Source: a virus
Taxonomy: Duplodnaviria; Heunggongvirae; Uroviricota; Caudoviricetes
Length of the DNA: 5,707 nucleotides
IMG/VR virus record: IMGVR_UViG_2744054447_000008
Reading direction: 5' to 3' (one strand)
Shown here piece after piece: positions 1 to 4,338 of this stretch. Each line of letters begins with the position of its first letter. The stretch's first letter is position 1. The notes below the pieces were generated by a model. That model was given only the letters and a program-made list of their open reading frames with translations, ran no database searches and was not told the DNA's origin. The translations under genes and the position numbers were made by a program.

Positions 1-162
1 CCAGAGCCTGAGCCATTTGAAAATAACATTATCATTGACGCCATTTTCACGTGCAATCTGTGCAACACAAGCTCCAGGTTGTGATGCCAGTTCCACCATA
101 CGAAGTTTGAATTCATTCGAATAGTTTTTACGAGGTTCTTTTCGCCAGTCCTGTAATTCCAT
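1..162 (-). CDS. IS transposase helper protein (OrfA/TnpA-like, HTH_Tnp_1 type), N-terminal 54 codons; gene continues past window start
   Basis: Hand translation of the minus strand from ATG at 162..160 gives MELQDWRKEPRKNYSNEFKLRMVELASQPGACVAQIARENGVNDNVIFKWLRLW, open to position 1. The pattern YSxEFKlxxVExxxxPGxxVAxIARxxGVNxNxxFKW is the helix-turn-helix signature of IS3/IS66-family orfA proteins. It falls below the 60-aa cutoff of the supplied ORF track because it is cut by the window edge. Confidence 0.6.
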   Translation of the reverse strand, partial: MELQDWRKEPRKNYSNEFKLRMVELASQPGACVAQIARENGVNDNVIFKWLRLW

Positions 163-166
163 ACTT

Positions 167-219
167 AGATGTCCGTCTATATCAGATGGGCGTCTAAGTT
201 ACCAATTCTCGTCTGATGG
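167..219. repeat. Direct repeats AGATGtcCGTCTA (167-179) and AGATGggCGTCTA (184-196), with a rearranged third copy CGTCTGATGG (210-219)
   Basis: Two 13-bp copies match at 11/13 positions, offset by 17 bp, immediately upstream (minus-strand sense) of the transposase-helper start codon. Confidence 0.35.
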
Positions 220-314
220 CTACATACGGCGGTCAGTTTACGCTTACGCTTCAGTTATCGCTATGCGATTCAAGTCACAAAATAAATCCATCCTAAATAC
301 AACCAGTTATATCT

Positions 315-358
315 AAAACAACCAATAAAACAACTTTTGTTGTTGACGATAAAACAAC
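315..358. repeat. Array of three AAAACAAC octamers (315-322, 327-334, 351-358) with an inverted copy forming AACAAC-TTTT-GTTGTT (329-344)
   Basis: Octamer starts are spaced 12 and 24 bp apart. A 6-bp inverted repeat with a 4-nt spacer spans 329-344. The region is AT-rich and non-coding, and TTGACG at 343-348 overlaps the right arm. Confidence 0.35.
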
Positions 359-564
359 TATAGTTTTAAATAAGTTCATCGCAACAACACAACGATACGG
401 CAACTACCTGATTCACCGTTGCGATGACCGCTTAGATCCGCAGTTTGAATTTCAGCAGGCTTCGGGGAGTGCGAGGGGTGAAACGGACGCGTGAACGTCG
501 GTGTGACCAGCTGAAATTAACTCAACATTTCATACCTTAGTCGCTTCAACGAGGCGGCTTAGTT

Positions 565-930: not shown

Positions 931-1227
931 ATGAACGCTTATTACATTCAGGATCGTCTTGAGGCTCAAAGCTGGGCGCGTCACTACCAGCAGATCGCCC
1001 GTGAAGAGAAAGAGGCAGAACTGGCAGACGACATGGAAAAAGGTCTTCCACAGCACCTGTTTGAATCACTCTGCATCGATCATTTGCAACGCTGCGGGGC
1101 CAGCAAAAAAGCCATTACCCGTGCGTTTGATGACGATGTTGAGTTTCAGGAGCGCATGGCAGAACACATCCGGTACATGGTTGAAACCATTGCTCACCAC
1201 CATGTTGATATTGATTCAGAGGTATAA
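931..1227 (+). CDS. gam: Gam, host RecBCD nuclease inhibitor (short GamS form, 98 aa)
   Basis: Translation [44 protein letters not shown]...[12 protein letters not shown] matches lambda Gam as I recall it, apart from a few substitutions. AGGAG at 919-923 sits 7 nt before the ATG. An in-frame stop at 874-876 rules out a long N-terminal extension. Confidence 0.93.
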
Positions 1228-1232
1228 AACGG

Positions 1233-2018
1233 ATGAGTACAGCACTCGCAACGCTGGCTGGGAAGCTGGCTGAACGTGTCGGCATGGATTCTGTCGACCC
1301 ACAGGAACTGATCACCACTCTTCGTCAGACGGCATTTAAAGGTGATGCCAGCGATGCGCAGTTCATCGCATTGCTGATCGTCGCCAACCAGTACGGCCTT
1401 AATCCGTGGACGAAAGAAATTTACGCCTTCCCTGATAAGCAGAACGGCATCGTTCCGGTGGTGGGCGTTGATGGCTGGTCCCGCATCATCAATGAAAACC
1501 AGCAGTTTGATGGCATGGACTTTGAGCAGGACAATGAATCATGTACGTGCCGGATTTACCGCAAAGACCGCAATCATCCGATCTGCGTTACCGAATGGAT
1601 GGATGAATGCCGCCGCGAACCATTCAAAACTCGCGAAGGCAGAGAAATCACGGGGCCGTGGCAGTCGCATCCCAAACGGATGTTACGGCATAAAGCCATG
1701 ATTCAGTGTGCCCGTCTGGCCTTCGGATTTGCTGGTATCTATGACAAGGATGAAGCCGAGCGCATTGTCGAAAATACTGCATACACTGCGGAACGTCAGC
1801 CGGAACGCGACATCACTCCGGTTAACGATGAAACCATGCAGGAGATTAACACTCTGCTGATTGCCCTGGACAAAACATGGGATGACGACTTATTGCCGCT
1901 CTGTTCCCAGATATTTCGCCGCGACATTCGCGCATCGTCAGAACTGACACAGGCCGAAGCAGTGAAAGCTCTTGGATTCCTGAAACAGAAAGCCACTGAG
2001 CAGAAGGTGGCAGCATGA
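1233..2018 (+). CDS. bet: Bet (Red-beta) single-strand annealing recombinase, 261 aa
   Basis: Translation [82 protein letters not shown]... is the lambda Bet sequence with very few differences. The start is 5 nt after the gam stop, with AGAGG at 1218-1222. Confidence 0.97.
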
Positions 2019-2695
2019 CACCGGACATTATCCTGCAGCGTACCGGGATCGACGTGAGAGCTGTCGAACAGGGGGATGATGCATGGCACAAATTACGGCT
2101 CGGCGTCATCACCGCTTCAGAAGTTCACAACGTGATAGCAAAGCCCCGCTCAGGAAAGAAGTGGCCTGACATGAAAATGTCCTACTTCCACACCCTGCTG
2201 GCTGAGGTTTGCACCGGTGTGGCTCCGGAAGTTAATGCTAAGGCGCTGGCGTGGGGAAAACAGTACGAGAACGACGCCAGAACCCTGTTTGAATTCACTT
2301 CCGGCGTGAATGTTACTGAATCCCCGATCATCTATCGCGACGAAAGTATGCGCACCGCCTGCTCTCCCGATGGTTTATGCAGTGACGGCAATGGCCTTGA
2401 GCTGAAATGCCCGTTTACCTCCCGGGATTTCATGAAGTTCCGGCTCGGTGGTTTCGAGGCCATAAAGTCGGCTTACATGGCCCAGGTGCAGTACAGCATG
2501 TGGGTGACACGAAAAGATGCCTGGTACTTTGCCAACTATGACCCACGAATGAAGCGTGAAGGCCTGCATTATGTCGTGGTTGAGCGGGATGAAAAGTACA
2601 TGGCGAGTTTTGACGAGATGGTGCCGGAGTTCATCGAAAAAATGGACGAAGCACTGGCTGAAATTGGTTTTGTATTTGGAGAGCAATGGCGATGA
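2015..2695 (+). CDS. exo: Exo (Red-alpha) 5'-3' dsDNA exonuclease, 226 aa
   Basis: Translation [94 protein letters not shown]... matches lambda Exo. The start ATG overlaps the bet stop (ATGA at 2015-2018). Confidence 0.97.
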
Positions 2696-2874
2696 CCCAT
2701 CCTCACGATAATATCCGGGTAGGCGCGATCACTTTCGTCTACTCCGTTACAAAGCGAGGCTGGGTATTTCACGGTCTTTCTGTTATCCGAAATCCGCTGA
2801 AAGCCCAGCGGCTGGCTGAGGAGATAAATAATAAACGGGGGGCGGTATGCACAAAGCATCTCCTGTTGAGTTAA
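2692..2874 (+). CDS. Small early-left protein, lambda orf60a-like (60 aa), function unknown
   Basis: Translation [60 protein letters not shown]. The ATG at 2692 overlaps the exo stop (ATGA), and the position after exo matches lambda. The ORF track's alternative start at 2686 would add two residues. Confidence 0.7.
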
Positions 2875-3038
2875 GAACGAGTATTGATTTGGCACATAGC
2901 CTTGCTCAAATTGGAGTCAGGTTTGTGCCAATACCAGCAGAAACAGACGAAGAATTTCATACGTTAGCCACATCCCTTTCACAAAAGCTGGAAATGATGG
3001 TGGCGAAAGCAGAAGCAGATGAGAGAGACCAGGTATGA
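2847..3038 (+). CDS. Small early-left protein, lambda orf63-like (63 aa), function unknown
   Basis: Translation [63 protein letters not shown]. It overlaps the 3' end of the preceding gene by 28 nt in another frame. Position and length fit lambda orf63 from memory. Confidence 0.7.
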   Translation: MHKASPVELRTSIDLAHSLAQIGVRFVPIPAETDEEFHTLATSLSQKLEMMVAKAEADERDQV

Positions 3039-3118
3039 CAACCACTGAATGCATTTTTCTGGCAGCGGGCTTCATATTCTGTGTGCTTATGCTTGCCGAC
3101 ATGGGGCTTGTTCAGTGA
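3035..3118 (+). CDS. Candidate 27-aa hydrophobic (single transmembrane-like) micropeptide, overlap-coupled at both ends
   Basis: Hand translation gives MTTTECIFLAAGFIFCVLMLADMGLVQ. Its ATG overlaps the orf63-like stop (ATGA at 3035-3038), and its stop overlaps a GTG that opens the orf61-like frame (GTGA at 3115-3118). A purine-rich GAGAGAGA tract lies 8 nt upstream. It is mutually exclusive with the long 3049-start form of the next ORF. Confidence 0.3.
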   Translation: MTTTECIFLAAGFIFCVLMLADMGLVQ

Positions 3119-3330
3119 CACCTCAGCAAGAAAATGCCCTTCGCAGCATTGCCCGTCAGGCTAATTCTGAAATCAAAAAAGTCAGACAGCAGTTTCCGGA
3201 TAAAAACGTCAATGACATTTGCCGTAGCGTACTGAAGAAGCACCGCGAAACGGTAACGCTGAAGGGATTCACACCGACTCATTTAAGCCTGGCAATCGGC
3301 ATGTTAAACGGCGTCTTTAAGGAACGATGA
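3049..3330 (+). CDS. Small early-left protein, lambda orf61-like; start uncertain (ATG 3049 for 93 aa, or GTG 3115 for 71 aa)
   Basis: The C-terminal part VTPQQENALRSIARQANSEIKKVRQQFPDKNVNDICRSVLKKHRETVTLKGFTPTHLSLAIGMLNGVFKER looks like a real protein. The N-terminal 22 residues from the 3049 start (MHFSGSGLHILCAYACRHGACS) are poor and overlap the hydrophobic micropeptide frame. GGGG at 3103-3106 would serve as a ribosome-binding site for the GTG at 3115. Confidence 0.55.
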   Translation: MHFSGSGLHILCAYACRHGACSVTPQQENALRSIARQANSEIKKVRQQFPDKNVNDICRSVLKKHRETVTLKGFTPTHLSLAIGMLNGVFKER

Positions 3331-3350
3331 ACATGAAAAGCAAAATTATC

Positions 3351-3376
3351 AGGGAGCTACAGGCTCCTTTTTTATT
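3351..3376 (+). terminator. Candidate intrinsic (rho-independent) terminator inside the operon
   Basis: Stem GGAGC (3353-3357) pairs with GCTCC (3363-3367) around a 5-nt loop, extendable by two weak pairs, followed directly by TTTTTTATT (3368-3376). It lies 20 bp after the orf61-like stop. Confidence 0.4.
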
Positions 3377-3428
3377 GTTCGCATTCACCCTCAAGCGTAT
3401 TAACCAACAGTTCAGGGATTAATGAAAG

Positions 3429-3650
3429 ATGGCAGACATCATTGATTCAGCATCAGAAATAGAAGAATTACAGCGCAACACAGCAATAAAAATGCGCCGC
3501 CTGAACTACCTAGCTGTATCTGCCACTCATTGTTGTGAGTGTGGCGATCCGATAGATGAACGAAGACGCCTGGCCGTTCAGGGTTGTCGGACTTGCGCCA
3601 GTTGCCAGCAAGATCTGGAGCTTATCCGCAAACAAAGGGGGATTAAGTGA
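3429..3650 (+). CDS. TraR/DksA-family C4 zinc-finger protein (RNA-polymerase secondary-channel binder type), 73 aa
   Basis: Translation MADIIDSASEIEELQRNTAIKMRRLNYLAVSATHCCECGDPIDERRRLAVQGCRTCASCQQDLELIRKQRGIK. The CxxC-x17-CxxC spacing and the CE(x)CGxPI(x)ExRR core match TraR/DksA-type zinc fingers (compare F-plasmid TraR ...CEACGNPIPEARRKIFPGVTLCVEC...). Confidence 0.85.
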   Translation: MADIIDSASEIEELQRNTAIKMRRLNYLAVSATHCCECGDPIDERRRLAVQGCRTCASCQQDLELIRKQRGIK

Positions 3651-3976
3651 TGGCTAACCTGCAACTTGCTGTTAAAAGTGAATACTTCGATGCCATGATT
3701 CGCGGAGAGAAAACGGAAGAGTATCGCTTGTGTAATGACTACTGGAATAAGCGAATTATGTTCCGGGAATATGACCGCCTGATTATCACAAAGGGATATC
3801 CGAAGCGCGACGATTCCAGTCGCAGAATTGATGTTCCGTATGACGGATATGAAGTGAAGACAATCACACATCCGCACTTTGGCGATAAACCGGTAAAGGT
3901 GTTCGCTATAAAGGTGAATATCAGCACTGAATATCAATCCGCACAACACAAGGTCAAGAATGTTCAGAGTGATTGA
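3650..3976 (+). CDS. ASCH-domain / DUF3850-like protein (PUA-like fold), 108 aa
   Basis: Translation MANLQLAVKSEYFDAMIRGEKTEEYRLCNDYWNKRIMFREYDRLIITKGYP... The N-terminal SEYFDAMIRGEKTEEYR matches the ASCH GxKxxExR motif exactly (GEKTEEYR). The ATG overlaps the preceding stop (TGATG at 3648-3652); an in-frame GTG at 3647 is the alternative start. Confidence 0.7.
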   Translation: MANLQLAVKSEYFDAMIRGEKTEEYRLCNDYWNKRIMFREYDRLIITKGYPKRDDSSRRIDVPYDGYEVKTITHPHFGDKPVKVFAIKVNISTEYQSAQHKVKNVQSD

Positions 3977-4199
3977 CCCTAACACCTGGTACGTCGACCA
4001 CCACGGCACTCCCTGCAAAATCCTGCGTTCTACCCACAACAAAGTTCACTACATCCGAAAAGGCAGAACATGTATCGCCAGCATGTTCCGCTTTAATCAT
4101 GACTTTGAACCTGTGAATAAAGCTGATGCAGATCGGATAGCAGAAGAGATCGAAACGGCAGAACACATTAAGAAGTTACGTGACATGCGCAGGAAATAG
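3960..4199 (+). CDS. Hypothetical 79-aa protein, His/Cys-containing N-terminal half and charged helical C-terminus
   Basis: Translation MFRVIDPNTWYVDHHGTPCKILRSTHNKVHYIRKGRTCIASMFRFNHDFEPVNKADADRIAEEIETAEHIKKLRDMRRK. AGG at 3951-3953 sits 6 nt before the ATG. It overlaps the preceding gene's end by 17 nt and is co-oriented with the operon. I recognise no family with confidence. Confidence 0.55.
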   Translation: MFRVIDPNTWYVDHHGTPCKILRSTHNKVHYIRKGRTCIASMFRFNHDFEPVNKADADRIAEEIETAEHIKKLRDMRRK

Positions 4200-4338
4200 A
4201 AAAATTGATAAATTCAATACTGCATTTCTCAGCATTAAATTTATCTCTATGACCAGTCAAGAGATGTACCTGCCATGAGCTTAATATCATGTCAGATATA
4301 TCGGTCACAAACTCCCTCAGCAGCTAAGAGGAGGACAA
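4200..4338 (+). promoter_or_regulatory. AT-rich intergenic region upstream of xis with an 8-bp inverted repeat and a strong ribosome-binding site; candidate operator or promoter region
   Basis: GATAAATT (4207-4214) and AATTTATC (4238-4245) are inverted repeats flanking two GCATT copies. TAATAT at 4282-4287 resembles a -10 element, but I found no well-spaced -35. GAGGAGG at 4328-4334 lies 4 nt before the xis ATG. Confidence 0.25.

Follow-up and report, generated by a model that had tools for sequence, protein, structure and literature searches.

A 27-codon frame between orf63 and orf61 of lambda-like prophages is a likely coupled gene for a small hydrophobic peptide

Introduction

Is the short stretch between the orf63-like and orf61-like genes of lambda-like prophages a spacer, the beginning of orf61, or a gene in its own right? 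Lambda is the reference temperate phage, and the exo-xis block in which this stretch lies tunes the lysis-lysogeny decision and the induction of Shiga toxin (Stx) prophages. The block is reported to lower host survival (PMC6213356), and as a whole it affects host survival, lysogenization, and induction (PMC6213356, PMC3824215, PMC9239242). The lambda region is transcribed as strongly as N, and ribosome profiling is reported to show translation over "orf61" (PMC4195576, PMC8614690, PMC9239242). A review of the region describes ribosome-profiling ORFs of 7 and 31 aa there and no 27-aa ORF.

Here, we analyzed a window of 5,707 nt from a caudoviricete record (IMG/VR IMGVR_UViG_2744054447_000008), which comprises the early-left (pL) recombination and exo-xis segment of a lambda-like Escherichia coli prophage, oriented along pL transcription. 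A sequence-only reading of the window had singled out a hydrophobic ORF of 27 codons at 3035-3118 (here, the mini-ORF) and proposed that it is a translationally coupled gene, not a chance ORF, with a product long enough for one membrane-spanning helix. It also raised the possibility that such a peptide may modulate host membrane proteins or lysis timing.

Results

A 27-codon ORF fills a gap in the pL operon

The relevant features, in window positions, are as follows.

931-1227, plus strand: gam
1233-2018, plus strand: bet
2015-2695, plus strand: exo
Ending at 2874, plus strand: orf60a (DUF1317)
2847-3038, plus strand: orf63-like gene, the putative upstream coupling partner (DUF1382; Pfam PF07131, E = 9e-29)
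3021-3028, plus strand: Shine-Dalgarno (SD)-like purine-rich tract GAGAGAGA, within the 3' end of orf63 and 6 nt 5' of ATG 3035
3035-3118, plus strand: mini-ORF of 27 codons encoding MTTTECIFLAAGFIFCVLMLADMGLVQ, with a hydrophobic core at C6-A21
3049-3114, plus strand: N-terminal extension of the 93-aa "orf61," read in the +2 frame relative to the mini-ORF; without coding constraint
3115-3330, plus strand: orf61-like gene in its 71-aa extent, the putative downstream coupling partner
3327-3422, plus strand: ORF of 31 codons
3429-3650, plus strand: orf73 (DksA/TraR zinc finger)
3' of orf73, in order: an ASCH-like gene, a 79-aa ORF, xis, and int

Stop/start overlaps of 4 bases are the norm in this operon, occurring at bet-exo, exo-orf60a, orf63-mini-ORF, mini-ORF-orf61, orf61-31-codon ORF, and orf73-ASCH-like gene. 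Once the mini-ORF is counted, the largest gap from bet to position 4199 is 6 nt; without it, an unexplained gap of 76 nt is left in that stretch. The mini-ORF runs on the plus strand from ATG 3035 to TGA 3116-3118 and encodes 27 aa. At the 5' junction (3035-3038, ATGA), its start overlaps the orf63 stop codon TGA 3036-3038. At the 3' junction (3115-3118, GTGA in the window and ATGA in most relatives), its stop lies over the orf61-like start, with GTG 3115 in frame with the 71-aa orf61-like protein (3115-3330). The ORF, both overlaps, and the alternative 93-aa ORF from ATG 3049 are in every detail as the sequence-only reading had described them. Position 3115 was occupied by A or G only, and both preserve Gln27 (CAA or CAG) together with a valid start codon (ATG or GTG).

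The tract GAGAGAGA gave a calculated anti-SD duplex of -5.6 kcal/mol at a spacing of 6 nt, similar to the values for its operon mates bet, exo, and gam. The SD-like element of orf61 itself is GGGG at 3103-3106, which is weak (-4.7 kcal/mol), and the orf61 start in the window allele is GTG. When the 77-nt interior of the mini-ORF was shuffled, 30% of the shuffles remained open in the mini-ORF frame, so that its openness is weak evidence by itself. A 16-mer as hydrophobic as that of the mini-ORF was found in 0.06% of the open shuffles, and the 16-residue stretch was the most hydrophobic among the 97 window ORFs of at least 20 aa.

The fold of 3000-3160 was less stable than that of shuffles (z = +1.65), and an Rfam search of the mini-ORF region returned no family. 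A scan of 2600-3700 on both strands found no sigma-70-like promoter, a weak negative given that only the consensus was scanned. These results lend no support to an antisense gene or to an independent toxin-antitoxin locus here. An RNA element as the source of conservation was ruled out, with no Rfam match in the region and a fold that did not rise above shuffles. A programmed -1 frameshift joining the peptide to Orf61 was also rejected, as sequence inspection revealed no slippery heptamer within the ORF.

Two further observations concern the rest of the window. The start of the 31-codon ORF (3327-3422) overlaps the orf61 stop by another ATGA, and a terminator-like hairpin at 3351-3369, the only intrinsic-terminator-like hairpin in 2600-3700, lies inside it and corresponds to the published t2 (PMC4195576). 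This ORF had no synonymous excess (5:9) and is probably the 31-aa ribosome-profiling ORF "orf2313." Located 5' of gam, a weak match to the Rfam AfaR sRNA (154-364, plus strand; 32 bits against a gathering score of 100, E = 0.009) is probably due to chance.

Variation follows the mini-ORF frame

Our sample comprised 227 usable loci from IMG/VR and phage records, RefSeq genomes, and other contigs. The IMG/VR loci were anchored on the orf61 protein and a DNA pattern 3' of the ORF, and the ORF interior was not preselected. Some contigs are present twice in the sample, and we therefore counted distinct alleles and not sequences; the 227 loci represent 30 DNA haplotypes. Given that all known copies share at least 91% DNA identity, conservation alone is uninformative, and the sample of substitutions is small (28 alleles).

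Sixteen of the 28 variant alleles in the interior (3038-3114) fall at codon position 3 of the mini-ORF. In the mini-ORF frame, these alleles gave 15 synonymous and 13 nonsynonymous changes, where 26% synonymous changes are expected (binomial P = 0.0017). The two remaining sense frames had synonymous-to-nonsynonymous counts of 5:23 and 7:21, the antisense frames had counts of 6:22, 6:22, and 12:16, and the orf61-like gene in the same data gave 25:27 (P = 0.0009). This pattern indicates purifying selection that is specific to the mini-ORF frame and equal to that on the accepted orf61-like gene. The sequence-only reading had set the hydrophobic frame against the frame from ATG 3049, and the comparison across related phages places the synonymous excess in the former (15:13 versus 7:21). 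It had also named indels breaking the 27-codon frame as evidence against a gene; we found no indel inside the 84-nt ORF in the 227 loci, except in L108, a prophage that is decayed throughout. The flanking orf61 gene does have indels, with two independent cases (an added A in lambda and a 4-bp deletion in phage ev207).

The peptide was identical in 198 of the 227 loci. Alleles present in at least nine loci comprise seven synonymous changes and one replacement (T3A), and the frame is intact in the most divergent E. coli allele (L115), which differs by three synonymous changes and the replacements A21S and D22G. Replacements were somewhat concentrated in the polar ends, with 7 in 10 codons there and 6 in the 16 codons of the core. 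Of the latter six, five led to hydrophobic residues, which did not reach significance as a test of hydrophobicity preservation (P = 0.09). Among the 176 phage records with the mini-ORF stretch, the peptide was 100% identical in 138; 26 others had a single change, and 11 had two. These 138 identical peptides and the synonymous excess show that the peptide is not free to vary in the way that a sequence-independent regulatory leader or upstream ORF (uORF) would allow.

In orf63 (2875-3034), the 99 loci compared had 7 synonymous and 15 nonsynonymous changes and thus no signal of purifying selection, which may be due to diversification or allele shuffling. The NMR structure of lambda orf63 has been solved.

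Module exchange occurs at the mini-ORF start

The joints in lambdoid mosaics typically lie at gene boundaries. In 30 loci (e.g., L092 and the RefSeq locus L119), the A of ATG 3035 is the very first base of homology to the window, and orf63 is replaced by a gene for a 185-aa phage N6-adenine methyltransferase (567-1124 in L092; 1-504 in L119). The methyltransferase stop re-forms the ATGA over the mini-ORF start (…GGGAGGCTGCATGA…), and the mini-ORF is conserved as a unit across this junction. In place of GAGAGAGA, these loci carry a canonical GGGAGG 4 nt 5' of the ATG, with an anti-SD duplex of -10.3 kcal/mol. The joint treats ATG 3035 as a gene boundary, with a ribosome binding site placed for this ATG and not for ATG 3049. 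The frame-specific synonymous excess, the lack of indels, and this junction at the ATG with its own Shine-Dalgarno together favor the earlier proposal of a coupled gene over a chance ORF.

In another mosaic (L111), a 250-aa gene (741-1493) with no Pfam match on record stands in place of orf63, the mini-ORF, and the first orf61 codons, and orf61 starts 8 nt after another gene. Given that L111 has orf61 without the mini-ORF, the mini-ORF is dispensable for orf61, and the two have no obligatory linkage.

The orf61 gene very probably begins at the mini-ORF stop

The classical lambda orf61 (61 aa, complement(30839..31024)) starts 16 nt 5' of the mini-ORF in another frame, at the equivalent of window ATG 3019. 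The lambda mini-ORF, complement(30925..31008), lies within this annotated gene and encodes an identical peptide. The A run at window positions 3175-3180 is A7 in lambda, HK630, and DE3 and A6 in the window, phage 434, and most relatives; lambda "orf61" is thus a frameshifted, truncated reading of a gene that runs to 3330 when intact. In the literature, lambda Orf61 "appears truncated," a remark that comes without a cause in the text that carries it. The independent deletion in phage ev207 is at 3198-3201. Lambda-type sequence with the A7 frameshift also occurs in assemblies named as Shewanella, Bradyrhizobium, Pseudomonas, Kitasatospora, Oceanobacillus, and others (L009-L022), where several of the contigs have low coverage and a length of ~48.4 kb; it is almost certainly contamination with lambda control DNA.

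In Stx phages (Phi24B, 933W, and many more), a 93-aa orf61 is annotated from the ATG equivalent to 3049, so that the Phi24B gene vb_24B_7c starts 14 nt inside the mini-ORF. The records of phages 434 and 21 and current RefSeq PGAP annotation instead start orf61 at the 3115-equivalent codon and leave the preceding 76 nt unannotated, and the PGAP call is 71-73 aa in five RefSeq genomes. In the P0013 allele, the gene likewise starts at the 3115-equivalent Met, after a different upstream gene.

The N terminus of the 93-aa version had been judged to be of low quality at the outset, and the PGAP start at 3115 agrees with this judgment, as do the following results. In the 93-aa frame, 3049-3114 gave synonymous-to-nonsynonymous counts of 0:11 in a first set and 7:21 in a larger set, with no protein-level constraint. 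The sole SD-like match for ATG 3049 is 13 nt away and hence not usable. The AF2 model of the 93-aa version had pLDDT values of 44-55 for residues 1-20 and 85-90 from about residue 30, and it was confident only from about residue 23. Residues 1-23 of Phi24B Orf61 also model inconsistently and were excluded from published models (PMC8614690). In the phrog_303 profile, the 71-aa protein matches positions 23-93 of 101, suggesting that the profile was built from over-extended calls. Residues 1-22 do not behave as part of the conserved Orf61 family protein (phrog_303, vb_24B_7c). The PGAP name for the orf61-like protein, "cell division protein ZapA," is weakly founded given that the Pfam match is below threshold (E = 0.008, 17 bits versus a cutoff of 23.8); in the literature, the protein is modeled as homeodomain-like.

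The predicted peptide is hydrophobic, with a short core

The peptide has a GRAVY value of +1.62. Its uncharged core (C6-A21) of 16 residues has a mean Kyte-Doolittle hydropathy of 2.81 and a sum of -3.4 kcal/mol on the Hessa scale; the best 21-residue window takes in Asp22 and sums to about -0.1 kcal/mol. The core is bracketed by Glu5 and Asp22. The peptide contains neither Lys nor Arg and has a net charge of -2, so that the basic flanking residues of the positive-inside rule are missing. A core of 16 uncharged residues is also short of the canonical bilayer span of about 18-21 residues. Given that the core is below this span and that the positive-inside rule is not followed, "single-pass membrane protein" is a working model only. 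The suggestion of a membrane helix made by the sequence-only reading stands insofar as the peptide is hydrophobic enough to partition into a membrane, but with a 16-residue core and no basic flanks it would not be a textbook transmembrane helix. Pfam and PHROGs hold no family for the peptide, and a tblastn search against all phage records found no divergent relatives.

The module is common in E. coli

A stretch of 116 nt around the mini-ORF was present in 3,145 of 5,426 complete E. coli genomes (58%), at 4,271 places with at least 91% identity, and identical copies occur in E. coli chromosomes (e.g., strain 4/1-1). The orf61-like family is nearly restricted to E. coli, and the mini-ORF module is narrow and young. 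The most divergent members of the orf61-like family were uninformative: L108 is decayed, L109 and L242 are disrupted by insertion sequences, L110 is at a prophage edge, and L111 lacks the mini-ORF. IS3-family elements lie in or beside the block in several E. coli prophages (L109, 305-1517; L242, 1-741; L115, 1-270); one of them splits orf61, and another clips the first mini-ORF codons and gives rise to a 32-aa database variant. The exact peptide is found in databases as a sporadic "hypothetical protein" (UniRef A0A0A2SGE8_ECOLX, ~981 contigs), and full-text literature searches with the peptide sequence or the UniRef identifier found no mention of it.

Discussion

Our analysis indicates that the mini-ORF is likely a real coding gene. 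If so, its product is probably a membrane peptide, and on balance we favor the reading in which the pL (exo-xis) operon includes the 27-codon frame as a genuine gene, translated, coupled to its neighbors, and giving a product that probably resides in the membrane. Ribosomes that end orf63 at TGA 3036-3038 would restart at ATG 3035, aided by the GAGAGAGA tract at 3021-3028, read the 27 codons, and stop at TGA 3116-3118 atop the (A/G)TG start of the 71-aa orf61. Termination over the orf61 start could then promote initiation of orf61, which has only a weak SD of its own. Through this restart-and-termination mechanism, the mini-gene would both yield a peptide and hand ribosomes to orf61. Soon after infection or induction, the peptide would most likely insert into the inner membrane, forming a short helix that may oligomerize, and would act there on a host or phage membrane component.

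We considered that the mini-ORF could serve solely as a uORF, whose translation itself carries ribosomes from orf63 to orf61 while a functionless peptide is degraded. The 4-base overlaps at both ends, the GTG start and weak SD-like GGGG (-4.7 kcal/mol) of orf61 in the window, the lack of homologs or a family for the peptide, and the nonsignificant hydrophobicity-preservation test would all fit such a relay. However, a relay predicts no amino acid constraint, whereas the synonymous enrichment matches that of orf61 and the peptide is identical in 138 of 176 records. The extreme hydrophobicity would also be improbable by chance (0.06% of open shuffles), and in the L111-type mosaic, orf61 lies 8 nt after another gene without this relay. 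We consider this explanation unlikely. Equally, we doubt that the stretch is a noncoding spacer with a chance ORF, conserved through the recent near-clonal spread of the module or as a DNA or RNA signal. Three-base periodicity (16 of 28 alleles at codon position 3) and a synonymous excess specific to the mini-ORF frame argue against a spacer, as does the lack of indels in 227 loci compared to two independent ones in the neighboring gene. The mosaic junction at the ATG moreover supplies a canonical SD at the right spacing, and no RNA structure, Rfam family, or promoter-like site on either strand points to a signal. On the side of a spacer are the identity of at least 91% among all copies, the 30% of equal-length shuffles that are open in frame, the 76 nt left unannotated by RefSeq PGAP, and the ribosome-profiling review without a 27-aa ORF.

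It is very improbable that the stretch is the N terminus of a 93-aa Orf61 starting at ATG 3049 (or, in lambda, of a 61-aa orf61 from ATG 3019). In its favor, the frame runs from ATG 3049 into the conserved domain without a stop, it is annotated in this way in many records, and the extension is included in the phrog_303 profile. Yet 3049-3114 bears no mark of protein constraint (0:11 and 7:21), ATG 3049 has a single SD-like match, at a distance of 13 nt, and the pLDDT of residues 1-20 (44-55) lies below that of the domain (85-90), in line with the removal of residues 1-23 from published models (PMC8614690). The 3115-equivalent start used by PGAP, phage 434, and phage 21, and the P0013 allele that starts at the same Met after a different upstream gene, also speak against it. 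An antisense ORF of 61 aa (2917..3102), which has wobble positions in common with the mini-ORF, could in principle be the conserved frame, and it has a weaker synonymous excess of its own (12:16, P = 0.015). Such a shadow is to be expected where the third positions of a sense frame are aligned, and the same effect is seen opposite orf61. Given further that the antisense ORF opposes the pL transcript, has no promoter-like site, and does not survive the mosaic junction intact (in L092, it has 44 aa and another C terminus), we regard this explanation as hardly credible. Our preferred reading therefore remains that of a coupled gene for a peptide that is probably located in the membrane.

A gene at this position would bear on published genetics. 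In the orf61 deletions of lambda and Phi24B, "the nucleotide sequence of orf61" was replaced by an 87-nt scar (PMC6213356). Both annotated genes cover the mini-ORF, so these deletions should have removed it too. If the gene is real, phenotypes attributed to orf61 are not assignable to Orf61 without separating alleles, given that the deletions, and possibly the frameshifts, destroy the mini-gene. Given that the lambda Orf61 domain is already truncated, we infer that the mild phenotypes in lambda could stem from the mini-gene. An effector role would have its strongest case in lambda, where this domain is cut short by the frameshift and the 27-aa gene is intact. That the peptide, and not Orf61, is behind part of the phenotypes of "orf61" deletion or frameshift (lysogenization, host survival, and induction) is a tentative idea, and on present evidence we would not expect it to hold.

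If the gene is real, the maps of lambda and Stx phages miss a conserved early gene, the surrounding stretch of which is carried by 58% of complete E. coli genomes. Both the 61-aa and the 93-aa models of orf61 would then be misdrawn, their first 22 or more residues not being protein. The misdrawn start may account for the unreliable N-terminal models and, more speculatively, might bear on the insoluble products of orf61 overexpression. Should the effector reading also be true, the product would be an early, acid-flanked, short-span membrane peptide, of a kind undescribed for phage developmental control. The mini-ORF would also illustrate how coupled micro-genes are hidden by the cutoff of ~30 codons used by gene callers. 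It is of interest because it resides in lambda and in the prophage complements of most E. coli and because it would overturn the orf61 gene model.

The product of the mini-ORF joins a familiar class, that of small hydrophobic proteins overlooked by gene callers. KdpF, AcrZ, MgtS, and YohP are small hydrophobic inner-membrane proteins of E. coli. Like them, the mini-peptide has fewer than 50 aa and one apolar segment, is encoded within an operon, was missed by gene callers for its size, and is predicted to act from the membrane beside a larger partner. Unlike them, it has a core of 16 residues, no Lys or Arg, a charge of -2, and none of the usual positive-inside anchoring, and it has no sequence relationship to them (no Pfam or PHROG match). 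Type I toxin peptides (Hok, TisB, DinQ, ShoB, and Ibs) are 19-50 aa long, are often prophage borne, and can depolarize the membrane, and the mini-peptide resembles them in size and extreme hydrophobicity. In contrast to these toxins, the mini-ORF is an internal cistron of the pL operon that overlaps its neighbors on both sides and does not stand alone, it has no promoter-like site and no stable mRNA fold that would hide its start, and its product lacks the polar or charged tail of many type I toxins. We rejected a type I toxin-antitoxin architecture on these grounds, with no promoter-like site in the consensus scan, no Rfam family in the region, and no structure sequestering the ribosome binding site (z = +1.65).

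The closest parallels in geometry are the ATGA-coupled cistrons bet-exo and exo-orf60a of the same operon, with which the mini-ORF shares the identical 4-base arrangement at both ends and an SD-like element inside the upstream gene. With only 27 codons, unlike classic coupled cistrons, it could just as well be seen as a relay linking two larger genes. Compared to lambda orf61 and vb_24B_7c, as studied in the Wegrzyn and Donaldson laboratories, the mini-ORF is the same DNA in a different frame and with a different product, and the conserved Orf61 domain of those genes begins only at the mini-ORF stop.
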